DNA of 64,000 bases from Nannocystales bacterium (GCA_050633305.1 JBOEGF010000012.1:59487-123486); one strand, 5' to 3'; shown: positions 28,888 through 41,495, counted from the stretch's first letter. The notes: a model not told the origin generated them from the sequence alone. Numbers and translations: made by a program.

Positions 28888-30423
28888 ATGGACCAGTCGA
28901 TCACACGAGGTGAGATTCCCGCCGACGCTCCCGCAGTCACCCGGAGCCGAAACTGGGGCCGGACGCTGAGGCGCGGCTTCGGTTGGGGCATGCTCGGCCT
29001 GTTCTTCTTCCTGCTCTTTGCCTGGATCACGCTCCCAACCGAAGCGATCGCGTGGCGCATCAGCCACGAGGCCAAGAAGGCCGGCTACGTCGTGGAGATC
29101 GAGGACATCTCGGTCATGCCGTGGGGTTCGGCGACCCTCGAGAATGTCACGTGGACGTTCGAGCCGAGTCGTCCCGATTCACCGCCACAGCAGTACTTCA
29201 TGGAGGAGGTCGACATCTCGATCGGCCTGCTGTCGTTGCTGGCCGGAACGGTGGATGTCGAGGTCGAGACCGAGCGGGAGGACGGGACGATCATGGCCCG
29301 CTACGTTCAGGGCTCGAGCGAGACCACCGTCGCGGTCGACATCGACGGGCTTCCGCTCTACGACGTTCCCAAGGCCGCGCAGGCGCTCAACGTCCCTCTG
29401 TACGGGCTTCTCAACGTCAAAGCCGACATCACGGCGCCCGACGGCAAGTTCTCCAAGGCGGAGGGCAAGATCACGCTGGCATGTTCGGCGTGCCGGGCCG
29501 GGGACGGGGACTCCAAGCTCTACGTGCCCGGCGGCAGCAAGGCGTTGCGCGATGGCATCACGCTCCCCGAGATCGACTTCGGCACGCTCACGGGCGAGCT
29601 CATCGTCAAGAAGGGGGCAGCGACCATCGAGGAGCCGATTGCGACCGAGAGCGACGACATGATCATGTCGCTCACCGGCAAGCTCAAGCTCAAGGATCCG
29701 TTCCAGAAGTCTCGCTTCAACATGCTGATGAAGCTCGAGCTGACCGAGTCCTTCCTCAAGGAAGCCGAGCGGGTCGCGTTTATCTATCGCGGCGCGAGTG
29801 CCAACGCGAAGCTCGACCCGCCTGAGCGAGGTCTGGGGTTCAAGCTGGGGGGCCCCGTCTCCAAGCCGCAGTTCCGCGGCGTGAAGAGCAAGTCGACCGC
29901 GGAGAACCTGGCCGAGCGTCGCAAGAAACGGCGGGATCGAGATCGCAGACGAGCAGAGCGTCGCGCCAAGCGAGGCAAGAAGTCCAAGAAAAGCCCGAAG
30001 AAGGACGACGCGAAGAAAGACGCGGCGGACGACAAGAAGGACGAAGACAAGAAGGACGACGAGCGTCCAAATCTCAACATCGCGCCGCTGGACGATGAGC
30101 CGAGCGCCGATGAGCCTCGTCCGTCCTTGCCTCCCACGGAGGATGACGATGTCGAGGTCTTCGATCCGAACGAAGGTGGCCGCGATGAGCCTGCCAATGA
30201 CCAGCCCTCCGACGACGAACGCTACGGGCGGGAGGACGGACAGGGCCAGGACGACGGCCAAGGGCAGGACGACGGCCAAGGGCAGGACAACGGCCAACAA
30301 GACGACGGTCAGGATGGCCAACAGGACGATGGCCAACAAGACGACGGTCAGGACGGGCAAGCGGACGGCGGCCAAGACGACGGTCAGGGCCAGGGCGGCG
30401 GCAGCGGTGGCCAGCGGCAGTAG
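28888..30423 (+). CDS. gspN: Type II secretion protein GspN with long charged, disordered tail
   Basis: TM followed by TLPTEAI, beta-rich body, last gene of the cluster. Confidence 0.7.
   Translation: MDQSITRGEIPADAPAVTRSRNWGRTLRRGFGWGMLGLFFFLLFAWITLPTEAIAWRISHEAKKAGYVVEIEDISVMPWGSATLENVTWTFEPSRPDSPPQQYFMEEVDISIGLLSLLAGTVDVEVETEREDGTIMARYVQGSSETTVAVDIDGLPLYDVPKAAQALNVPLYGLLNVKADITAPDGKFSKAEGKITLACSACRAGDGDSKLYVPGGSKALRDGITLPEIDFGTLTGELIVKKGAATIEEPIATESDDMIMSLTGKLKLKDPFQKSRFNMLMKLELTESFLKEAERVAFIYRGASANAKLDPPERGLGFKLGGPVSKPQFRGVKSKSTAENLAERRKKRRDRDRRRAERRAKRGKKSKKSPKKDDAKKDAADDKKDEDKKDDERPNLNIAPLDDEPSADEPRPSLPPTEDDDVEVFDPNEGGRDEPANDQPSDDERYGREDGQGQDDGQGQDDGQGQDNGQQDDGQDGQQDDGQQDDGQDGQADGGQDDGQGQGGGSGGQRQ
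30235..30395 (+). repeat. Coding low-complexity repeat (GQDDGQ / QDDGQ) in the GspN tail
   Basis: GGGCAGGACGACGGCCAA-type units visible. Confidence 0.8.
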
Positions 30424-30465: not shown

Positions 30466-32169
30466 TCAGCCTGCCCAGTGGTGAGGCCGGCCCCCAACGA
30501 TTGTCCCAAGAACCGGCGCGTCTCGAATCCGCGCCGGTTCTTGTTCGTCGAGGAGTCTCCCAAAACAGGTCAGGTCAGCTTGCATGCCCACCTTGATCTG
30601 CCCAAGTTCTTCTTCCCGGTGTACGGCGTAGGCAGCCTCCTGCGTGAAGCCCCGAACTGCGCGGTCCAGACTGACGCGTTGGTCGGCGAGCCACCCTCCC
30701 TCGGGGGCTCCGGTTGCGTCCCGCCGGGTGATGGCGGCGTACAGGCCGTGGGTCACATCGGGTAGCTCCACCGGGAAGTCACTTCCGAAGCAGAGGTGCG
30801 CGTCCGCGTCCAACAGACTGCGCCATGCATACGCGCCTGCGAGGCGTGAGACGCCAACTCGCTCGGCGACCCAGCCCATGTCCGACGTCGCGTGTGTCGG
30901 TTGCATCGATGCGATGACACCAAGCTCGGCGAAGCGGGGGATGTCGGAGGTGTCGAGGAGCTGGCAATGCTCAATGCGGGGTCGTGGGTCTCGCCGCGGC
31001 GCCTCCCCTAATGCGTGCTCGTACACGTCGAGGACGGTGCGGTTGCCTGCGTCGCCGATTGCGTGGGTGGCGACCTGCCATCCTCCTCGCATGGCGGCCA
31101 CGACGATTCGGCGGAGTGCAGCCTCGTCGTGCTGCATCAGCCCGCGATGGCCTGCTCGGTCGGCGTAGGGGTGGAGTAGGGCGGCACCGCGGCTCCCCAA
31201 CGCCCCGTCGGCGTAGACCTTCACGCCAGCGAGGGCGTAGCGGGATCCGCGCAACAGAGGGTCTGGCGCCTGGCCCTGGAGGTCTTGCATGAACCAGGAC
31301 TCCGCGGCGTAGGCGTGCACGCGGATCCGCAGAGCTTCGGAGTCGCTGGCCATACGTCGGTACGCAGCATCCGTGCCCGAGCCAATGCCCATGTCGTGCA
31401 CGCCCGTGAGTCCGCGTTCCAGGATGTGTTCTTGAGCCGCCTCGATCCGGGAGCGGAGGTCCGCGGGGGATGGCTGGGGGACGCTGACGAGCTCCATCGC
31501 GGTGTCGATCAGGACACCGGTTGCCGCTGCGGAGCTGTCGCGCAGAATCTCTCCACCGCTGGGGGTTGGGGTATTCGGACCGATCCCCGACTCTCGCAGC
31601 AAGGCGGCGTTGCCCCAAGCCGCGTGTCCATCCACGCGTCGAAGCCAGACCGGACGGTCCGGGAACGCTTGGGTGAGCGGATGGTGGGTCGGCATCGAGG
31701 CTTCCGGCCATAGGTTCTGGTCCCACCCGCGTCCGACGACCCACCCCTTGGCAGGGGCGCCCGCCTGCAGCCTGCGGACCACCTCTTGCGTTGATTCGGC
31801 GCCGCGAAGGTCCACTGTCGCCAGCGATTCTCCGAGCCCCACGAGGTGGGCGTGCGCATCGACGAGTCCGGGCGTCACTGTGCCCCCGCCCGCATCGAGG
31901 ACCACGGTACTCGGGCTTCGCAGGCCTTCCACCTCCGACTCATCTCCGACCGCGACGATGACCCCGTCGCGGATGGCCAGGGCGCGGGCGCGGGGCCGTG
32001 CTGGGTCGAGCGTCCAGACGTCGCCTCCGCGGACGATCATGGATGCGTTGGGCCGACCCGATGGGCTCGGTTGTGCCGGCTTGGGGGCCGAGGTGCCCTG
32101 AGCGGGTCGACATCCCGCGAGCGGGCTCGACAACAGCATCGTGAGCATCGAACGACGAGTGGGACGCAC
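30466..32169 (-). CDS. Exported amidohydrolase (amidohydrolase_3, YtcJ-like); Tat/lipoprotein signal
   Basis: TPGLVDAHAH, RVDGH, KVYADGALGSRGA, HAIGD, RIEH, SMQPTH, GSDFPVE; N-terminal TRRSML...LAGC. Confidence 0.92.
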   Translation of the reverse strand: MRPTRRSMLTMLLSSPLAGCRPAQGTSAPKPAQPSPSGRPNASMIVRGGDVWTLDPARPRARALAIRDGVIVAVGDESEVEGLRSPSTVVLDAGGGTVTPGLVDAHAHLVGLGESLATVDLRGAESTQEVVRRLQAGAPAKGWVVGRGWDQNLWPEASMPTHHPLTQAFPDRPVWLRRVDGHAAWGNAALLRESGIGPNTPTPSGGEILRDSSAAATGVLIDTAMELVSVPQPSPADLRSRIEAAQEHILERGLTGVHDMGIGSGTDAAYRRMASDSEALRIRVHAYAAESWFMQDLQGQAPDPLLRGSRYALAGVKVYADGALGSRGAALLHPYADRAGHRGLMQHDEAALRRIVVAAMRGGWQVATHAIGDAGNRTVLDVYEHALGEAPRRDPRPRIEHCQLLDTSDIPRFAELGVIASMQPTHATSDMGWVAERVGVSRLAGAYAWRSLLDADAHLCFGSDFPVELPDVTHGLYAAITRRDATGAPEGGWLADQRVSLDRAVRGFTQEAAYAVHREEELGQIKVGMQADLTCFGRLLDEQEPARIRDAPVLGTIVGGRPHHWAG

Positions 32170-32301
32170 GGCGAGATGCTAGAGCAGAATGCTGACGACA
32201 ACCATGTGGCGATAGCTTCGCACGCACAGGGCCCGTGCCGAGAGACTTGACCCGCGGACGAGCGCCCGTCACCCTTAGTCAGGTTCGCTGCTTGGGTTTG
32301 T

Positions 32302-32853
32302 ATGGATTTGAAACGACTGCCACCGTCGCTGTTGGTCGCGCTGGGCCTTGCGGGCTGTGGTCCTGCAGTGGACAGCGGGACTTCGGGGGGCGACTCGGGC
32401 GGGTCTGCAACCAGCACGGGAGGCTCGAGCGGCACCGTTGGGCCTTGTTTGACCCCTTGGGAGACGACCAGTGGCGCGACGACGTCGAACTCGGTGGGCC
32501 CGTGCTTGGGGATGGTCACGACGGGACCGTGTCTCGATGTGGGCTCGACGGTGGGCCCTTGCCTTGCGCCGCCGCTTGGCACCAGCAGCGGAACTGACAC
32601 CGATACCGATACGGACACCTCCGGTGGCGGAACCGACTCCGGCACCACGGGTGGGGCCGACACGGGCGCGGGGTCATGCCTCGTCCCGCCCGACGCGTTC
32701 CCGGAGCCGGTCGGGGACTGGGCCGGAGCGCCCGACACACCGGCGCCGCAGACCCGATCGCTGATCCTGCGTCGGCTCCGTCAGGCGGGTGTCCTCCCCG
32801 ATGATGTCGCGGCTCGCCTGCCGCTTCACCCCGACGACAACCCCTCGGACTGA
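32302..32853 (+). CDS. Putative multi-core RiPP-like precursor / lipoprotein 1 (4x GPCL plus GSCL)
   Basis: Leader MDLKRLPPSLLVALGLAGC (lipobox); GPCL at aa 47, 66, 75 and 85, GSCL at 124; C-terminal RRLRQAGVLPDDVAARL; no folded domain recognisable. Confidence 0.7.
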   Translation: MDLKRLPPSLLVALGLAGCGPAVDSGTSGGDSGGSATSTGGSSGTVGPCLTPWETTSGATTSNSVGPCLGMVTTGPCLDVGSTVGPCLAPPLGTSSGTDTDTDTDTSGGGTDSGTTGGADTGAGSCLVPPDAFPEPVGDWAGAPDTPAPQTRSLILRRLRQAGVLPDDVAARLPLHPDDNPSD

Positions 32854-32874
32854 CGGGCCCACGCGGACGTACAA

Positions 32875-32905
32875 CCGAAGCACTGCCGAAGCACTGCCGA
32901 AGCAC
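32875..32905 (+). repeat. 11-bp direct tandem repeat CCGAAGCACTG, about 2.8 copies
   Basis: CCGAAGCACTG CCGAAGCACTG CCGAAGCAC, ending 1 nt before the ATG at 32907. Confidence 0.9.
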
Positions 32906-32906
32906 A

Positions 32907-33377
32907 ATGGATCTCAAGCGCCTTCCTCCCTCACTCCTCGTCGCCCTGGGCCTCGCCGCTGCGGGTGGGGACAACATGGGCTGTACGACCAGCGCCTGTC
33001 TTGACGTGGCCGGCCCGGAGACGACGACGGGTCCGTGCTTGGATGTCGTCGCGCCGACCACCAGCGGAGAGACCACCGGCGCTGGATCCGACGGGTCTAC
33101 TGTCGGCCCGTGCTTGGACGTTGCGCCAGGAACCACCACGTCATCCACGAACCCGACCTCTGGCACCGCGACCGGGTCGAGTTCCGGCACGGACACGGAC
33201 ACGGACACGGACACGGACGGTGGGACGGATTCTGACGGCGGGACCGACTCCGGCACCAGCACAGGAGGCCTCCCTAATGGTGGCGAAGCTGCGGAGCGAG
33301 GGTCGGTTCTTGGGCGCTTGCTCGATGCAGACATCTTGCCACCCGATGTCGCGGCGCGTCTCCGCTCGAAGGACTGA
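32907..33377 (+). CDS. Putative multi-core RiPP-like precursor / lipoprotein 2 (SACLDV, 2x GPCLDV)
   Basis: Same 17-aa leader as the previous gene; CLDV three times; C-terminal RLLDADILPPDVAARL. Confidence 0.7.
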   Translation: MDLKRLPPSLLVALGLAAAGGDNMGCTTSACLDVAGPETTTGPCLDVVAPTTSGETTGAGSDGSTVGPCLDVAPGTTTSSTNPTSGTATGSSSGTDTDTDTDTDGGTDSDGGTDSGTSTGGLPNGGEAAERGSVLGRLLDADILPPDVAARLRSKD

Positions 33378-33379
33378 GC

Positions 33380-34555
33380 ATGTCGGTCCTCGAAATCTCC
33401 GAACTCGAGTCTGATCCACAGTCTCAGATCCCAAGACTCGACTTCGAGCTCACGCCCGGCTGCGACCACAAGTGCGCCCATTGTTACAACGTGTGGACCG
33501 CGGACGAGGGCGACGCGCAAGCGGGCTACGACACGGGCGGCCAACTGCGAACGCCCGAGTTCAAGGCGATGATGACCAACATCGTCGGGCAGACCCAAGC
33601 CAAGCACATCACGATCACGGGTGGGGAACCGCTGCTGCGCAAGGATGCCGTCGACATCATCGAACACGCATGCCGCAGCGTGGATGTCGTCACGCTGATC
33701 ACCAACGGGAGTCACGTCGGCCCTGACACCGCGGCTCGTTTCGGTCGCGCGGGTCTGCGGCAGGTTCAGCTGACGCTGCTCGCAGGCGACAGGGTCGAGC
33801 ATGATCGGCTCAAAGGCGCGGAATGCTTCGACGACACGATTCGGGCTGCGGTGAACCTGACCGAGGCCGGCGTGCCCGTGCAGGTCTGCTTTGTCGCGAT
33901 GCACGAGAACTGGCATCAGTTCGAACGTGTGATGGAGCTGTGTTTCGCCTTGGGCATCCGGGGAGTCTCGTACAATCGAATGTCTCCCACCGGCGGAGCC
34001 ATTCACCACATCGCCCGCCTCATGCCCACGGTCGAGCAGATCGAGTCCAACCTCGACACGGCAGAGCGACTGGGTCGAGCGTGGGGTATCGCTGTATCCA
34101 CCGCGATGCCGATCCCGCCGTGTCTGATCCGCATCGAGAACTACAGCTGGGTGCGTTTCGGGTTCTGTAGCACCGGGTCGTCTTCGCCGAATATCGTCAT
34201 CGATGGGAAGGGCAACGTGCGCAGCTGCAACCTCGCCGGCGGGGTGATGGGGAACGTGCTCGAGCAGCCATGGTCGGAGATCTATGCGGTCCCCTACCAG
34301 CGCGAGTTCAAGCGCAACGTTCCTCAGATGTGCCGCGGCTGCGCCTACGAATCGTCGTGTCAGGGCGGCTGCAAAGAGAGCGGGTTTGCGACGTTTGGCG
34401 ATCATGCGCATCCCGAGCCCCTGTTGTGGCTGGCCCAGAACCCCGACTGGCGCGAGAAGGTCGGCGAGGAGGTCGATCAGTCGATCATTCCGCTGCGTAG
34501 GCTGACGCGCCCGCCGAGTCGCAAGACCGAGGGAGCCCCGGTTGGCGACGCGTGA
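33380..34555 (+). CDS. Radical SAM protein with SPASM domain (peptide-maturase type)
   Basis: CDHKCAHC (CX3CX2C), TGGEPL, TNG; SPASM C..GNVRSC..GNV..CRGC-X5-CQGGC. Confidence 0.92.
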   Translation: MSVLEISELESDPQSQIPRLDFELTPGCDHKCAHCYNVWTADEGDAQAGYDTGGQLRTPEFKAMMTNIVGQTQAKHITITGGEPLLRKDAVDIIEHACRSVDVVTLITNGSHVGPDTAARFGRAGLRQVQLTLLAGDRVEHDRLKGAECFDDTIRAAVNLTEAGVPVQVCFVAMHENWHQFERVMELCFALGIRGVSYNRMSPTGGAIHHIARLMPTVEQIESNLDTAERLGRAWGIAVSTAMPIPPCLIRIENYSWVRFGFCSTGSSSPNIVIDGKGNVRSCNLAGGVMGNVLEQPWSEIYAVPYQREFKRNVPQMCRGCAYESSCQGGCKESGFATFGDHAHPEPLLWLAQNPDWREKVGEEVDQSIIPLRRLTRPPSRKTEGAPVGDA

Positions 34556-36776
34556 CCCGTGCGTACTCCTGATCTCGCCGGGGATCATCAAGTGGACCGA
34601 CATGGACTTCGGTCTGCCTCACTTGGTGAGCATGGGCGGGTACGTGCAGCATCACACCGGGGTTCGCGTCGAGTTGCTCGACCTGAACTACGAAGGCGGC
34701 GACCACAAGCAGCTCCTCGAGACCATCGAGTCGCTGGGGCCGCATCTGGTCATCGGGCTCTCCACATATTCCAGCTTCGACTACATGCGGGTGATGGCGC
34801 TCGCCCGCTTCCTCCGGCGCCGTTTTCCGAACACGCCGCTGGTCACGGGGGGTTATCACGCCAGTGCGTTGCCCACCGATGTCGTCTTCGAGGGCTCGCC
34901 CTTTGATGCCGTCATCGTAGGGGAGGGGGAGAAACCCCTGCTGTCGATGGTCCAGGTGCTGCTCGGGGGCGGACGTCTGGACAAGCAGATCTGGGGACCC
35001 GATCAGATTCAGGACCTCGACGCGCTGCCGCCGTACCAGTGGCAACTGCTCGACCGCTACTGGCCCCGCGCGACGGACATCGGTCGCAAGTTCCAGATCT
35101 ACCTCGCACGTGGTTGCCCGTACCACTGCACGTTCTGCATGGAGCGGGCGAAGAGTGGCTACAAGTGGCGGGCGTACTCCTCCGAGCGCGCCGTGTCTGA
35201 GCTTGTCCGCCTCTCGCAATGGACCGACCTGAAGAACTGGGTCATCAACATTGCGGACCCCTTGTTCGGGTTCAAGCGCAGCTGGAGGCGTGAGGTGCTC
35301 CAGGGCATCATCGAGCACGACTTGCTGCCTCGGCAGTACTGGACGCTGACGCGCTCGGACGACCTCGATGACGAGGACGTGAGCCTCTTGGCACGGGCAC
35401 GGTTCTCGATCGGCATCGGCCTCGAGAGCGGGAGCCCGAAGATGCTCACGCTGATGCAGAAGGGCAACAAGCCCGACGCCTACCTCTCCGCGATGCAGCG
35501 CCTGGCTCGCCTCAGCCGCAAGCACAAGCTGACCTGGGCCTCGAACGTGATCGTCGGGCACCCCGGCGAGTCGATCGAATCGATGCGGGAGACCCAGCGT
35601 TACCTCACCGAGCTGTTCACCTCCGCGAAGGAAACCTGCGGGTGGCTGTCGATCGACGCGTTTCGGCTGTACCCCGGAGCGCAGGTCCACGAGGCCATGG
35701 AGACCTACGGCCAGCTTCACGGCACTCGATTCCACCATCCTCAGTGGTGGAAGAGTTGGTACGACGGCGCGTTTGCAGCCGAGCACATCGACCCCAGCGC
35801 AGAGGTGTCCTTCGAGGATCGGGTCGAGTTTATGCATGAGGCCTACGCCCCGTTGACCGCGGAGATCGCGGAGCGCTTCACCGGTCAGGGCCGCAGCGTT
35901 GACCGTGTGTTTCGCCGCAGCCTCAACGACCAAGCCCGACAGATGAGCAAGGCGAGCAAAGAAACAACCCTGCGTCGGGCGGCCCGCGTCCGCGCGCTGG
36001 CCGAACGTCGAGAGGACGAGCAAGGGACCGTTACCGCGGTGAACTTTCCCATCGGTCTGCATCTCAAGGATCCGTGGGTCCGGGAGCGCGAGTCGGCGGT
36101 ACGGCGGCTCCTCGACGAAGGCGTGCTGAGGACCGCGGACCTGGTCGAAGCGCTTCTGCAGGTCTCTCCACAGGCGCACATGTCTCGGGAGGCGGCGGCG
36201 ATGCTGCTCGGGGGAGAGCACGCGTGCAGTGAGGTCGAGGGGGAACTCGCCATCTCGCTCAGCCTCCGAACCACGGCGATGGGTCTCGAGGCGCTCGAAC
36301 CGGCGCTCGGCGACCGTGTGGTCGATGTGACCGCGCGCAGCGGGTACTTGGCTGCCCTGTTGTCTCTGCTCGTCGGGGAGCAGGGGGAGGTGCTCGCGAT
36401 TCATCCGGTCGGAGGGTCCTTGGACGAGGCGCGGGCCTTTGCGAAGGGCTTGGAGCCGTGCAGGAACGTTCTGGTCACGGAGGCGGAGTCCGCCGGGGTG
36501 ATGCTGGAAGGTACCTGGGACGGGGCGTGGATCGGCGCCGCGTTGCCGCGGGTTCCCCAGGGCGTCGCCACCCACCTGACCGAGCCCGGCGGACGGCTGA
36601 TCACCTTTGTCGGACCGCGGTTTCGACCCCAGGATCTGGTTGCACTGACGCGCCACGGAGAAGGGCTCGAAGAGCGCCGGGTGGCCAAGGTGGCGGTCCC
36701 GGTGCTCGCGGGACCGGGCGGGTGGATCCAACACCAACCTTCCGCCACGGTGGCCCGATCCTCGGTACGTCCGTGA
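34542..36776 (+). CDS. Cobalamin-binding radical SAM enzyme fused to a C-terminal PIMT (Pcm)-like methyltransferase domain
   Basis: B12-binding region (GGYHAS, VGEGE), ARGCPYHCTFC, GLESGS; C-terminal LEPALGDRVVDVTARSGYLAALL and LTEPGGRLI; TTG start with GAGGGAG SD. Confidence 0.85.
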   Translation: MATRDPCVLLISPGIIKWTDMDFGLPHLVSMGGYVQHHTGVRVELLDLNYEGGDHKQLLETIESLGPHLVIGLSTYSSFDYMRVMALARFLRRRFPNTPLVTGGYHASALPTDVVFEGSPFDAVIVGEGEKPLLSMVQVLLGGGRLDKQIWGPDQIQDLDALPPYQWQLLDRYWPRATDIGRKFQIYLARGCPYHCTFCMERAKSGYKWRAYSSERAVSELVRLSQWTDLKNWVINIADPLFGFKRSWRREVLQGIIEHDLLPRQYWTLTRSDDLDDEDVSLLARARFSIGIGLESGSPKMLTLMQKGNKPDAYLSAMQRLARLSRKHKLTWASNVIVGHPGESIESMRETQRYLTELFTSAKETCGWLSIDAFRLYPGAQVHEAMETYGQLHGTRFHHPQWWKSWYDGAFAAEHIDPSAEVSFEDRVEFMHEAYAPLTAEIAERFTGQGRSVDRVFRRSLNDQARQMSKASKETTLRRAARVRALAERREDEQGTVTAVNFPIGLHLKDPWVRERESAVRRLLDEGVLRTADLVEALLQVSPQAHMSREAAAMLLGGEHACSEVEGELAISLSLRTTAMGLEALEPALGDRVVDVTARSGYLAALLSLLVGEQGEVLAIHPVGGSLDEARAFAKGLEPCRNVLVTEAESAGVMLEGTWDGAWIGAALPRVPQGVATHLTEPGGRLITFVGPRFRPQDLVALTRHGEGLEERRVAKVAVPVLAGPGGWIQHQPSATVARSSVRP

Positions 36777-37504
36777 ACATCGACTTCGTTCGCTGGGATC
36801 AGGCGGCTCGGCTCTACGCCGTACTCGCGCGGCTGGACCTCGGCGCGGATGCGGCCTCGCTCTACGATGCCCGGCTCGCGACCGGGCCCTGGGTGGAATC
36901 GCTGTTGGACGCGTATCAAGCGGCGCCGAAACGCCTGCTGCTGCACGGAGCCCCGCTCGTGCTGTCCGAGGAGGGTCGCCCGCTCGAAGTTGACATACCA
37001 CCTGCTGGGCTGTCCGACGCGTCGGGTCGCCGTCTGTGGGCGGCGACCCTCGAGGGCTTGGAGGCGATCGCGAGCGAACCGCTGCAGTACGCGGAGGTCC
37101 CGGCCGAGATCATCGAACCGCTCGGGGTGCTTCGCGCTGCGCTCTGGGAGCGGGTGGGCCCGCCGCCACCGCTGACCGTCGTGGACTGTCCTGCGTTGCG
37201 CCGTGCCGGTCGAGCTGTGCAGTCGACCCATGGCAGGCTTGTGGGGGTCTCGCTCGCCGAACCGGCGGAGCATCTGCTCTGCCAGGTTCTGCACGAAGAA
37301 ACCCATGCCCTCACAGACCCCGTCGTTCGGCAGGCATGGAGCGCGGCAGGTGCGGGTCGCGACACGTCGGTCGGCAGCCCAGGGTATGCTCGGCATCAGG
37401 CGCTCGAGGCCGCCGCGGTTGAGGTCGGCGACGCGCTCATCGCTGCCCGCGCGCCGCAGTGGAGCGACGCGTATCGACGGTGGCGGGCGCGGTTCGGCAA
37501 GTGA
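36773..37504 (+). CDS. HExxH-motif protein (metallopeptidase or HExxH oxygenase candidate)
   Basis: GTGA overlap with the upstream stop; QVLHEETHALTD plus downstream HQALE. Confidence 0.65.
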   Translation: MNIDFVRWDQAARLYAVLARLDLGADAASLYDARLATGPWVESLLDAYQAAPKRLLLHGAPLVLSEEGRPLEVDIPPAGLSDASGRRLWAATLEGLEAIASEPLQYAEVPAEIIEPLGVLRAALWERVGPPPPLTVVDCPALRRAGRAVQSTHGRLVGVSLAEPAEHLLCQVLHEETHALTDPVVRQAWSAAGAGRDTSVGSPGYARHQALEAAAVEVGDALIAARAPQWSDAYRRWRARFGK

Positions 37505-37514
37505 GGAATGGCGC

Positions 37515-37847
37515 CTACGCGGGCAGCCCGATGTTTCGCAGCACGTTTCGCAGCTGCGGCTCCATCATCGAGCCGCTCTGGGTCCCGGCGAGCTCGCCGT
37601 CGGCGAAGCACAGCAAAGTCGGCACGCTGCGTACGCGATAGTGCGTGGCAAGGTCTGCGGACGTGTCCGCATTGACCAGCAGGAGTTCGAGCTTTCCCTC
37701 CGAGCTGGCGACGACGCGCTCGACGATGGGTTTGTAGGTTTTGCATGGCGCGCACCACGGTGTGGAGAACAGGACCAGTAGCCCCTTGGGCGGCGCTTCC
37801 AGCGTTCGCGCGAACGCGGCTGGGTCGAGGGAGAGAAGATTGCTCAT
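37515..37847 (-). CDS. Thioredoxin family protein
   Basis: FSTPWCAPCK, YRVRSVPTL. Confidence 0.92.
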   Translation of the reverse strand: MSNLLSLDPAAFARTLEAPPKGLLVLFSTPWCAPCKTYKPIVERVVASSEGKLELLLVNADTSADLATHYRVRSVPTLLCFADGELAGTQSGSMMEPQLRNVLRNIGLPA

Positions 37848-37853
37848 CAAGGG

Positions 37854-37913
37854 CTCAGGTGCCGAGCAGAGCTGGCCTTACAGGCGTAAGATCTTGATTC
37901 CTGAACACCTGAG
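37854..37913. promoter_or_regulatory. Back-to-back ECF-type promoters GTAAG-N15-CACCTGAG, one on each strand
   Basis: Plus strand: GTAAG(37886)-15nt-CACCTGAG(37906-13)-6nt-ATG. Minus strand: GTAAG(37881)-15nt-CACCTGAG(37861-54)-6nt-ATG(37847). Confidence 0.7.
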
Positions 37914-37919
37914 AACGAG

Positions 37920-38465
37920 ATGGACGCAACCAACGACGGGCTCGACATGCTCGGGGCTCTGATCCTCGCGGAACGCGCCCGATGGGTTTCGGTCGCGCGC
38001 GCCGAGGGGCTCGGTCCGCAGGACGCGATCGAGGCCGTGCAGGAGAGCCTCTGCAAGGTTCTGCGCGGGTTGGTGCTCGGCGACACCGAGGTTCCGCGAG
38101 ATCGTCTGGCCGCCTACGTCGCCGTTGTGGTTCGCAACGCGGCCCGCAACGGTCGACGCAGGCATCATCGGGCCCGTCCCCACGTCCCCCTCGACGAGCT
38201 CGACGAGATGGTTCTCGCCGATGAGCAGCCGGACTCCGAGGCGCTCGTCGCTCGCGCCGAGGAGCACGTTCGATTGCATGCTTGCGTTGCACGACTCTGC
38301 GATACGCAGCGCGCAGTCGTCACGTTGCGCCTGTTGGAGGAACGGGCGGGGGAGGACGTCGCGGGGACTCTGGGCATCACGCGGAACCACGTGGACGTGT
38401 TGTTGCACCGCGCCAAGCGTCAGTTGCGAAGCTGCTTGATCGAAGAACGTGTGACGCACGCCTGA
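37920..38465 (+). CDS. ECF sigma-70 factor
   Basis: Region 2 DAIEAVQE...VVRNAARN; region 4 QRAVVTLR..EDVAGTLGIT..VLLHRAKRQL. Confidence 0.9.
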   Translation: MDATNDGLDMLGALILAERARWVSVARAEGLGPQDAIEAVQESLCKVLRGLVLGDTEVPRDRLAAYVAVVVRNAARNGRRRHHRARPHVPLDELDEMVLADEQPDSEALVARAEEHVRLHACVARLCDTQRAVVTLRLLEERAGEDVAGTLGITRNHVDVLLHRAKRQLRSCLIEERVTHA

Positions 38466-39887: not shown

Positions 39888-41495
39888 GTGTCCGCTTGGC
39901 TTCAGGCCCGCCGCACGACCGCGCTGGCCGGGCTCGCGTTTCTCGGGTCGCTCTGTTTTGGCCTGGCCTCGCCTCCGAGTTCTGTACCTGTGCTCGCGTG
40001 GTTGGGATTCATCCCCCTGCTGCTGGCTGCGACCGGGATGGAGGGACGTCGTGTTCGCGCCCAGTTCTTCGTCGGCTGGGTGGGCGGGCTGTGTACCGGG
40101 TTGGTGGGCTTCCCGTGGATCGGACACACACTGGAACGTTTCGCCGAGTTTCCCGCATGGCTCGCCGCTGTGGGCACGTTCCTGTTCGCGGCATACACAG
40201 CGGTCCCGTATGGCCTGTGGCTGATCGCACTGGCCAGAGGACCCAAGGCGGGTCCGTGGCGGTTGTTGTGGGCTGCCGCCTCGTGGGTGGGTCTGACGTC
40301 CTTGTGGCCCGCCTTCTTCCCGTACACCCCGCTCATCGGCCTCTCACAGCTCCCCCCGTGGATTCAGGCGGCGGAGTTGGGTGGGGTGCCGGCGGTCGAG
40401 TGCATCGTCCTCGGGTTCGGCTATGCCGTCGTGTCGGCGGCGCTCTCGGGGACGATGCGGGCGCGCAGCGTCGCGCTCGGTATCGCAGTCGCCATCCCCT
40501 CGCTGACCTGGCTTGCAGGGACATGGCGTCTCGAGAGCCTCGACGCCCAAGCCGAGGGCGCACCCGTCGTGCGATTCGGCATCATTCAACCAAACACGGC
40601 GCTGTTCGCCAACCAGCGCATCGACAAGATGAAGCGGCTGTGGTCGATGTCCGCCGCCGCCGAACGAGAGGGGGCCCAGGTCATCGTGTGGCCCGAGGCG
40701 GGGATCTATCCGTGGGTACAGGAGCGACCGTTCCTCAAGGACGGTCACGGACTTCGGCGCGTGCTCCAGGCGCACAAGCTTCCGACGATCCTGGGGGTCG
40801 CGACGCGCAAGCAGGGCGACCCCTACGAGTGGAACACCGCCGTGGTGATGAACGCCGAGGGCGAGGTCGAAGGCACGTTCGACAAGACGGTCCTCGTGCC
40901 CCTCGGAGAGGAGATCCCGATTGTGGATCCCGACTGGGCGCGCTCGATCGTACCCGCGATGTCGCACAACCACGCCGGGGAGGAGCCCGCGCTGTTCCCG
41001 GTGACGCTGGCCGACGGTTCCGCCTCCTACGGGGCGGGCCCGCTCATTTGCTACGAGGATATTTTTGGGGACTTCGCGCGCGAGGTCGCGGGTCAGCCAG
41101 CGGGCATCGAGTTCTTCGTCAACGTGACCATCGACACCTGGTTCGGCGACACCGCGGAGCCTTGGGAACACCTCGCCCTGGCGCAGTTCCGCAGCGTGGA
41201 GCACCGGATCCCCATGGTCCGAAGCGTCGCGGCGGGGGCGAGCTCGGTGATCGATCACGGCGGCCGTCTGGTCGCTTCGGTTCCTGTCACCGATCCCTTG
41301 CCCGGGCATCCGATCCCACCGCAACGCCTGGTCCACGACGTGGCGCTGCCGAGAAACACCGCGCGCTCACCGACGATCTACGCGCGTGGGGGCTGGCTGC
41401 TGGGTCTGCTGTGTTCCATCGCGACCGTGTTGGTGCCGCTTGCTGCCGTCGTTCGGAGCAAGTATCGTCCGCGCGCGAGCGACGCGACCTCCTGA
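39888..41495 (+). CDS. lnt: Apolipoprotein N-acyltransferase
   Basis: N-terminal TMs; IQPN, VWPE, DKTVLVPLGE, ICYED, WFG, FRSVE. Confidence 0.92.
   Translation: MSAWLQARRTTALAGLAFLGSLCFGLASPPSSVPVLAWLGFIPLLLAATGMEGRRVRAQFFVGWVGGLCTGLVGFPWIGHTLERFAEFPAWLAAVGTFLFAAYTAVPYGLWLIALARGPKAGPWRLLWAAASWVGLTSLWPAFFPYTPLIGLSQLPPWIQAAELGGVPAVECIVLGFGYAVVSAALSGTMRARSVALGIAVAIPSLTWLAGTWRLESLDAQAEGAPVVRFGIIQPNTALFANQRIDKMKRLWSMSAAAEREGAQVIVWPEAGIYPWVQERPFLKDGHGLRRVLQAHKLPTILGVATRKQGDPYEWNTAVVMNAEGEVEGTFDKTVLVPLGEEIPIVDPDWARSIVPAMSHNHAGEEPALFPVTLADGSASYGAGPLICYEDIFGDFAREVAGQPAGIEFFVNVTIDTWFGDTAEPWEHLALAQFRSVEHRIPMVRSVAAGASSVIDHGGRLVASVPVTDPLPGHPIPPQRLVHDVALPRNTARSPTIYARGGWLLGLLCSIATVLVPLAAVVRSKYRPRASDATS

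Follow-up and report, generated by a model that had tools for sequence, protein, structure and literature searches.

We examined a 64,000-nt stretch of DNA from a Nannocystales bacterium (GCA_050633305.1 JBOEGF010000012.1:59487-123486; here called the window, with positions counted from its first letter) and, within it, a run of five plus-strand genes, A to E, referred to below as the GPCL cassette after a Gly-Pro-Cys-Leu motif that recurs in the products of the first two. Genes A and B encode low-complexity, precursor-like proteins that are paralogues of each other; C encodes a radical S-adenosylmethionine (SAM) enzyme with a SPASM domain; D encodes a protein that joins a B12-binding domain, a radical SAM core, and a domain with the fold of protein isoaspartate methyltransferase (PIMT); and E encodes a HExxH protein from a small unnamed family (Table 1). 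An earlier description made without database searches (the sequence-only reading) had claimed five same-strand, tightly coupled genes, and the open reading frame (ORF) listing and the sequence at positions 36773 to 36776 confirmed this with gaps and overlaps exactly as claimed. A and B are separated by 53 nt and B and C by 2 nt, C and D overlap by 14 nt, and the GTG start of E overlaps the TGA stop of D in the tetranucleotide GTGA at 36773 to 36776. This start of E is backed by orthologues that align from residue 1. Our best reading of the cassette is a radical SAM system for peptide or protein maturation in which an export signal takes the place of the leader.

GPCL-repeat proteins A and B and their family

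A and B share the N-terminal start MDLKRLPPSLLVALGL, and both carry a Thr/Asp/Gly-rich linker (TD-rich in A), several Cys-Leu (CL) sites, and a C-terminal tail of the form LPxDVAARL. The N-terminus of A is LPPSLLVALGLAGC, with the lipobox LAGC (nt 32317 to 32358); B has the same N-terminal segment as A, LPPSLLVALGL, and no canonical lipobox. The sequence-only reading had presented the pair as paralogous lipoproteins with a common leader, repeated Cys motifs of the GPCL and CLDV types, and a C-terminal motif. The paralogy, the common N-terminal segment, the GPCL repeats, and the tail all stand, but the lipobox is canonical only in A, and CLDV proved to be one variant among the residues that follow the core. 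Neither protein had a Pfam match at an E value of ≤0.1 or any match in NCBIfam release 20. The model of B in the ESM Atlas is disordered (predicted local distance difference test score [pLDDT], 0.44), and its best Atlas score, 0.84, was not used as evidence.

The same features recur across a family of 51 unique precursors (84 to 280 aa, with 2 to 10 CL sites each; median, 3). In these proteins, Leu came directly after 204 of 302 Cys residues; of the remaining 98 Cys, 91 were N-terminal; and 139 of 179 GP dipeptides ran directly into CL. At 154 CL sites taken from the first 34 candidates, position −1 was P in 125 and position −2 was G in 115, while position −3 was V in 78 and I in 17 (95 together) and position +2 was S in 74, D in 35, and G in 12; Leu at +1 in all 154 is a result of how the sites were picked. 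The repeated unit, as these counts give it, is therefore (V/I)-G-P-C-L, and no acceptor residue at a fixed distance was present across the 154 sites. At the C-terminal end, 33 tails could be aligned, each preceded by an amphipathic stretch; L and P were invariant and D, V, and the final L were each present in at least 90%, which gives the consensus LPxDVxxRL.

At the N-terminal end, a hydrophobic run was found in 48 of the 51 precursors, and contig ends truncate two of the three without it. A strict lipobox, L[ASTVI][GAS]C, was present in 21 precursors and a looser pattern in 37. The description of the precursors as lipoproteins is thus partly supported, by the 21 with a strict lipobox. Two types of N-terminus were distinguished. 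Type i, which includes A and B, carries the segment PxSxLxALGL and is common to 27 of the 51; type ii carries LTACTVS in at least 7, followed, after the lipobox, by a second hydrophobic segment of about 20 residues.

When all six frames of the 11.0-Mb assembly were scanned, six open frames had at least two GPCL or at least three PCL motifs; A, B, and an orphan gene look real, and the other three are Arg/Pro-rich and were judged by eye to be off-frame. Because the scan of the whole genome gave only A, B, and the orphan as real, the GPCL repeats in A and B are far beyond chance. The orphan precursor-like gene lies on another contig of the same genome (C42:17084-17575, plus strand); its 163-aa product combines five xPCL sites with the tail LPPDVLAKL, and genes C, D, and E have no counterparts nearby. 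C, D, and E are each single-copy in the 11-Mb genome, and a single enzyme set may serve a substrate encoded elsewhere in it.

Table 1. Genes, domains, and motifs of the GPCL cassette, followed by nearby genes (window coordinates)
Feature	Position	Strand	Details
A, precursor	32302-32853	+	183 aa; ORF listing
A, xGPCL sites	32437-32451, 32494-32508, 32521-32535, 32551-32565	+	Four sites
A, AGSCL site	32668-32682	+	One site
A, C-terminal LPDDVAARL	32794-32820	+	Tail motif
B, precursor, paralogue of A	32907-33377	+	156 aa; ORF listing
B, TSACL site	32988-33002	+	One site
B, xGPCL sites	33027-33041, 33102-33116	+	Two sites
B, C-terminal LPPDVAARL	33336-33362	+	Tail motif
C, radical SAM/SPASM enzyme	33380-34555	+	391 aa; Pfam
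D, B12-binding + radical SAM + PIMT-fold domain	34542-36776	+	744 aa, TTG start; Pfam
D, B12-binding domain	34644-34940	+	Pfam
D, radical SAM core	35100-35603	+	CPYHCTFC; Pfam
D, PIMT-fold domain	36090-36689	+	Pfam; helical region between core and PIMT fold
E, HExxH protein of small unnamed family	36773-37504	+	243 aa, GTG start, inside ORF 36458-37504
E, HExxH motif	37292-37306	+	HEETH
511-aa protein	28888-30423	+	No Pfam family
Thioredoxin gene	37515-37850	-	Converges on the cassette
Apolipoprotein N-acyltransferase gene	39888-41495	+	LNT_N + CN_hydrolase

Enzymes C, D, and E

The assignment of C to the radical SAM/SPASM enzymes was upheld. Pfam placed Radical_SAM at residues 23 to 188 (9.2 × 10−24) and SPASM at residues 271 to 321 (7 × 10−5), and the CxxxCxxC cluster motif (CDHKCAHC in the window) and seven Cys of the SPASM region were invariant in 23 orthologues. 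The nearest solved relatives of C were PqqE (2.3 × 10−21) and, second best, SkfB (9.7 × 10−17); both are peptide-modifying SPASM enzymes. No RRE (the recognition element of ribosomally synthesized and posttranslationally modified peptide [RiPP] enzymes) was found at the N-terminus of C, where there is no room for one because the radical SAM core begins at residue 23; the orthologue alignment begins at about residue 18. Likewise, C, D, and E gave no PqqD-type Pfam match. Among the 25 NCBIfam release 20 rows listed for C, none reached its cutoff: the best was NirJ2 (106.7 bits versus 500), and the maturase models StsB (82.6 versus 625) and AlbA (44.8 versus 850) were likewise missed. A GYW motif, whose Tyr is a ligand of auxiliary cluster I, is given as diagnostic for cyclopropyl synthases in the available text of PMC10878394. 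This motif occurred in 0 of 23 C orthologues, and a cyclopropyl synthase identity for C was rejected.

For D, the proposed fusion of a B12-dependent radical SAM enzyme to a PIMT-type domain was borne out by three Pfam matches: B12-binding (PF02310; residues 35 to 133; 3.7 × 10−11; 43.3 bits versus a cutoff of 32.1), Radical_SAM (PF04055; residues 187 to 354; 4.4 × 10−15), and PCMT (PF01135; residues 517 to 716; 1.4 × 10−14; 54.8 bits versus a cutoff of 20.3). The CxxxCxxC motif was kept in all 25 orthologues listed. In Foldseek searches with the predicted model (pLDDT 82.8), the N-terminal half of D matched cobalamin radical SAM enzymes by fold, with AprD4 best (3.7 × 10−17), followed by TsrM, CysS, MgmA, OxsB, and TokK in a range extending to 3 × 10−14; the C-terminal domain matched PIMT 2yxe (TM score of 0.85 normalized to the target; root mean square deviation [rmsd], 3.0). 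None of the 25 NCBIfam release 20 rows listed for D reached its cutoff, the best being TIGR04013 at 78.9 bits versus 251. Taken together, the Pfam rows for C and D at an E value of ≤0.1 comprised radical SAM, Fer4_12, SPASM, B12-binding, PCMT, and one weak match to DUF6610.

Although the fold of the C-terminal domain of D is that of PIMT, the residues that mark the enzyme are lost. The SAM loop reads TARSG in D where 2yxe has GTGCG, and a His stands where 2yxe has Glu (vleiGtGcGy and vvsiE in the Methanocaldococcus jannaschii PIMT versus vvdvtarsGy and vlaiH in the window). The first two Gly of the SAM-binding GxGxG loop were both present in 0 of 23 D orthologues, as was the post-I acidic residue, and the TISxPHM-type substrate segment of PIMT was not kept. 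Because the loop, the acid, and this segment are all lost, we read the domain as a noncatalytic PIMT fold. The sequence-only reading had suggested that the domain might make aspartimide or isoaspartate; this role is unlikely given the missing Gly pair and acid, together with cassettes that lack the domain or all of D (see below), and such chemistry was rejected on residue evidence.

That E is a HExxH protein was also verified, with HEETH at residues 174 to 178 and the motif invariant in 26 of 26 sequences. Seven residues were invariant in this set (Q171, H174, E175, H178, D182, H208, and E212), and they fit an HExxH…E metal site. No Pfam match at an E value of ≤0.1 was found for E, and NCBIfam release 20 held nothing. 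The predicted model (pLDDT 94.2) places the motif in a helix at residues 165 to 187, followed by a helix at 203 to 226. Foldseek returned nothing at an E value of ≤0.001. With VIA-align, the best matches were YbeY (Z = 6.5; rmsd, 3.4; 116 residues aligned), ERAP1 (5.8), Wss1 (5.3), and BepA (5.0), and then BlaR1, selecase, and thermolysin; HExxH-type zincin metallohydrolases filled nearly all of the top 50 rows, at middling Z scores. The HExxH oxygenase ChlB (8s5f) ranked below the hydrolases (Z = 4.1; rmsd, 5.1; 152 aligned). The modeled fold of E thus resembles that of zincins, and both a peptidase and an oxygenase were considered. A single sequence match for E in the Protein Data Bank (E value, 0.64) was rejected, and the nearest ESM Atlas entries, unnamed clusters of Minisyncoccota and Saccharimonadota (score of 0.92, within the noise range), were not used as evidence.

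The family to which E belongs is itself unnamed. A single-sequence search with E returned 65 clusters, and all those with a name from the source were called "hypothetical protein." A profile built from 26 sequences matched 265 representative clusters at an E value of ≤0.001 among 1.84 billion proteins, and a profile search gave 116 proteins, all at ≤3.2 × 10−46, of which the few with a source name were myxobacterial. One of the family (P0211) is named "hypothetical protein [Paraliomyxa miuraensis]," after a cultured marine myxobacterium.

Distribution, gene order, and architecture

The E profile matched 32 of 401 genomes sampled across the phylum, in 27 of 255 genera. In six related genomes, C orthologues were 94, 87, 73, 63, 46, and 43% identical to C of the window, and one or two CL-repeat genes lay directly upstream of C in all six. 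The same arrangement was seen in two overlapping locus sets, whose counts are not additive. Among 20 loci fetched around E matches, C, D, and E stood in the same order in 19, all 19 with CL-repeat ORFs upstream; the remaining locus (L066) has E only. A separate scan of genome contigs gave 33 loci, 28 of them with C. The contigs of the five without C are 1.6 to 10.7 kb long, and their sequences extend no more than about 1.9 kb upstream of E; four of these sequences end within D, and the fifth (L074) shows neither C nor D in that interval. Precursors were flagged by the filter in 23 of the 28 loci with C. In three of the other five, C lies at most 270 nt from the end of the sequence, and in two, candidates were found by eye: one (L095) has a precursor candidate upstream of C and another between C and D, and the other (L085) has a frameshifted candidate.

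Wherever the upstream DNA sufficed, then, one to three genes for disordered CL-repeat precursors precede C. The sequence-only reading had asked that co-occurrence of C with such genes be examined, and every C homologue of 43 to 94% identity that was examined with enough upstream DNA has them adjoining. Its treatment of the five genes as one unit is likewise sustained, since the order C-D-E and the precursors are kept across many families. The separateness of the five genes holds in the window but is not general: in many genomes, D and E form one fused protein, and a single open frame spans both in 9 of 24 loci and, in an overlapping set, in 14 of 31. E-family proteins in the representative library measure 987, 970, 750, 726, and 409 aa.

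Other departures from the window architecture were also seen. In L051/L093, the B12-radical SAM part is fused directly to E and the PIMT-like domain is absent; L073 retains the PIMT-like domain and lacks the B12 part; and in L017 and L083, C is followed by E and D is absent. A quick tree was built from 44 distinct C sequences, with Shimodaira-Hasegawa-like approximate likelihood ratio test (SH-aLRT) support only; 38 of the 44 come from loci with the full architecture. The starred clades that contain L073 and L083 otherwise consist of members with the full architecture, and this nesting suggests later loss in both. L017 and L093 sit on long branches.

All 33 contig-scan loci come from metagenome bins, whose names are Nannocystaceae, Myxococcales, Bradymonadales, Persicimonas, or, in a few cases, Enterobacterales, Alphaproteobacteria, or proteobacterium. 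Some bins with the cassette (L076, L082, L096, and L089) carry Enterobacterales or Alphaproteobacteria labels; because the quick tree places their C among the myxobacterial sequences, these labels probably reflect binning or naming errors and not transfer. Other genomes of the same family hold a sister pair (L102 to L105, that is, G019, G020, G015, and G018, and L008 to L012), in which the gene for a radical SAM/SPASM protein about 30% identical to C precedes one for a B12-radical SAM protein 37 to 42% identical to D. E is absent from these loci and the filter found no CL-repeat gene beside them; by these sequence comparisons, the sister pair is a different system, one that marks the boundary of the GPCL cassette.

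No accessory gene was found to be conserved around the cassette except among close relatives; the largest cross-locus cluster spans four loci. An ORF of 435 to 573 aa lies 0.6 to 1.8 kb upstream of C (from the end of the ORF to the start of C) in L050, L053, L055, and L063, beyond the precursors and on either strand. In the window, a convergent thioredoxin gene ends 10 nt past the stop of E, and this adjacency is not kept in other genomes. The substrates of the cassette resemble lipoproteins, and an apolipoprotein N-acyltransferase gene lies 2.4 kb downstream; this is probably the housekeeping lnt, because the neighborhood is common only to the closest relative. In the 511-aa protein encoded upstream, the N-terminus includes a hydrophobic segment; a Lys/Arg-rich stretch and a long, low-complexity DDGQGQ tail are also present. 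A scan of positions 31800 to 38000 gave no promoter-like sites and one terminator-like site, inside D, a count below the shuffle mean; both results are uninformative in a GC-rich genome.

A proposed maturation route and its place among known systems

With modest confidence, we favor the view that the cassette is a self-contained maturation system that modifies its own GPCL-repeat substrates in the cytoplasm, after which they are exported by the Sec or lipoprotein route as envelope proteins. The sequence-only reading had named the two low-complexity proteins as the likely substrates of the enzymes, and the conserved adjacency and the repeated motif support this. By eye, none of C, D, and E has an N-terminal hydrophobic segment, so that modification would take place on the unfolded chain in the cytoplasm, ahead of export. 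C would act once per GPCL unit and would convert or cross-link Cys, with a thioether to a neighboring residue as the leading guess; Cys is the favored target because nearly all non-N-terminal Cys lie in the unit and because the relatives PqqE and SkfB modify peptides. D would make a second change, for which C-methylation is the leading guess, and its PIMT-like domain would not be a methyltransferase and may be a docking module. Since the export signal occupies the N-terminus and no RRE was found, recognition may fall to the LPxDVxxRL tail, a candidate "follower" in the role of a leader peptide. E, often found fused to D, would be a metallopeptidase that recognizes or removes this tail. The product would leave by the general Sec pathway, or by the lipoprotein pathway (Lsp) where a lipobox is present, and would stay as a modified envelope protein. 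Such export would account for the lack of a transporter in the cassette.

Several observations weigh against this account. The target of C could be the Val/Ile at −3 or the Leu at +1 and not Cys. The best fold match of D, AprD4, is a nonmethylating dehydratase, so methylation by D is a guess. The mode of substrate recognition rests on inference because no RRE was found in the cassette, where residues 400 to 510 of D are helical in the model, as is the N-terminal part of E. D is missing in two loci, the PIMT-like domain in one, and the B12 part in one. The fold scores of E are middling (Z of at most 6.5; Foldseek E value of at least 0.18), and an alpha-ketoglutarate HExxH oxygenase is also listed (Z = 4.1). 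A strict lipobox is carried by only 21 of the 51 precursors, and the second hydrophobic segment of type ii precursors, if membrane-spanning, would return the repeats to the cytoplasm. Finally, all examined records are metagenome bins, except one protein from a named cultured species, and a search of RNA datasets listed none containing the cassette sequence; 0.65 of its words occur in one microbial mat metagenome DNA run.

Four other explanations were weighed. In the first, the cassette is a classic multicore RiPP system, in which the N-terminal segment is a leader and E cuts between repeats to free small modified GPCL peptides. Each precursor does carry 2 to 10 near-identical units, and PxSxLxALGL, found in more than half of the precursors and in distant genomes, is unusually strict for a plain signal peptide. 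Radical SAM RiPPs with repeated units are also known, as in TvgA (TVGG) and TigB (TIGSVS), according to the available text of PMC10878394. However, the cassette contains neither a transporter nor a conserved neighbor, and the N-termini are signal- or lipobox-like, with the hydrophobic run nearly universal and the strict lipobox in a sizable minority. Moreover, unlike released-peptide arrays, the precursors have units separated by spacers of widely differing length and composition. We consider this explanation unlikely.

An alternative of similarly low probability keeps the envelope destination and moves the chemistry: C or D would act on the Val/Ile at −3 or the Leu at +1, for example by cyclopropanation or C-methylation, and the free thiols would serve another end, such as metal binding or disulfides in the envelope. 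Val or Ile occupies −3 in 95 of the 154 sites, and Leu occupies +1 in all of them, by site choice. TvgB and TigE are described as modifying Val or Ile of short repeats (available text of PMC10878394), and D resembles the C-methylating cobalamin enzymes TsrM, CysS, MgmA, and TokK. On the other hand, −3 is the least strict position of the unit, Cys and Pro being the strictest, and the GYW signature of cyclopropyl synthases is missing from every C orthologue scored. Less probable still is that the repeats stay inside the cell, with at least the type ii proteins forming inner-membrane hairpins whose repeats face the cytoplasm, for example, as a redox or metal-handling scaffold. The two hydrophobic segments of about 20 residues that precede the repeats in type ii, and the apparently cytoplasmic location of all three enzymes, would suit such a scaffold; type i proteins, A and B included, have a single short signal-like segment, and A has a canonical lipobox, which speak against it. 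It is very improbable that the substrate of the enzymes is a small molecule or cofactor and that A and B are unrelated, cotranscribed envelope proteins: although the top NCBIfam rows for C are the cofactor enzymes NirJ2, PqqE, and AhbD, all far below cutoffs, repeat genes accompany C in every locus with enough DNA and in many families, three such proteins occur in the genome with two adjoining C, and the strict Cys and tail motifs would otherwise be unexplained.

The proposed cytoplasmic modification followed by Sec or lipoprotein export has its closest parallels in three groups of systems. Bufferins carry Sec signal peptides and are modified before export (available text of PMC11626156), and DAG-RiPPs and the oxazolin NedA, with its EGKCG repeats, use the lipoprotein pathway (available text of PMC13056109). 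As far as these texts describe them, these groups resemble the cassette in having a Sec or lipoprotein signal in place of a classical leader and no dedicated transporter, and in their conserved Cys motifs, repeated in NedA, which are modified in the cytoplasm, as we infer for the cassette. They differ in machinery, theirs being an MNIO (DUF692) enzyme with partner proteins, whereas the cassette has two radical SAM enzymes and a zincin-like protein. MNIO was absent from the Pfam rows of C and D at the threshold given above, and E had no Pfam row at all. The terms "radical SAM," "rSAM," and "SPASM" are absent from the available text of PMC13056109. The Cys motif of the cassette, its LPxDVxxRL tail, and its taxa also differ from theirs, as the available texts give them.

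With the sactipeptide (SkfB and AlbA) and ranthipeptide (PapB and CteB) systems, and with CrpA/CrpC, the cassette shares a SPASM radical SAM gene that adjoins a substrate with Cys motifs. Those maturases have an RRE and rely on an N-terminal leader, whereas in C the radical SAM core comes first; their curated models, StsB and AlbA, are missed widely, and an acceptor at a fixed distance from Cys is not conserved in the cassette substrates. CrpC is a SPASM enzyme that places thioethers on a protein substrate, CrpA (available text of PMC13692751). TvgB and TigE are SPASM enzymes that each modify every copy of a short repeat to form cyclopropylglycine, and the TvgA/TvgB and TigB/TigE systems resemble the cassette in a short repeated motif with a conserved Val or Ile followed by Gly; unlike in the cassette, the precursors are about 60 aa long, the cluster has its own transporter, and TigE has an RRE (available text of PMC10878394). 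For the N-terminal half of D, the fold relatives are those listed above, AprD4 included; the PIMT-like domain parts from true PIMT in lacking the SAM loop, the post-I acid, and the TISxPHM-type motif.

The sequence-only reading did not recognize the combination as a described class, and none of the libraries and papers searched catalogues it: no curated NCBIfam row listed for C or D reaches its cutoff, A, B, and E have no Pfam or NCBIfam family, and no open-access description of the cassette was found, although a listing in a large mining survey is possible. Nor was a fusion of a B12-radical SAM enzyme with a PIMT fold found described in the open-access literature. In its most specific form, which we offer tentatively and regard as possible but short of probable, the proposal would make this the first signal-peptide/lipoprotein RiPP made by radical SAM enzymes, with up to ten Cys-derived modifications placed at GPCL units in envelope proteins of marine and sediment myxobacteria by an RRE-less SPASM enzyme and a cobalamin radical SAM enzyme and guided by an LPxDVxxRL follower that a dead-PIMT/new-zincin module reads and removes.

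Genome-mining tools keyed to short peptides, RREs, or named families would miss the cassette. Given the E-family member attributed by name to the cultured P. miuraensis, the system may be testable at the bench. The chemistry at a strict Gly-Pro-Cys-Leu unit by an RRE-less SPASM enzyme is a subject for study, E would represent a new small zincin-like family, and D, a cobalamin radical SAM enzyme joined to a PIMT fold that lacks its cofactor site, would exemplify the reuse of an enzyme fold for binding. If the proposed route is true, the cassette adds a radical SAM branch to a class of RiPPs and small proteins, recognized only recently, whose members travel by the general Sec or lipoprotein machinery of the cell in place of a leader and a dedicated exporter.

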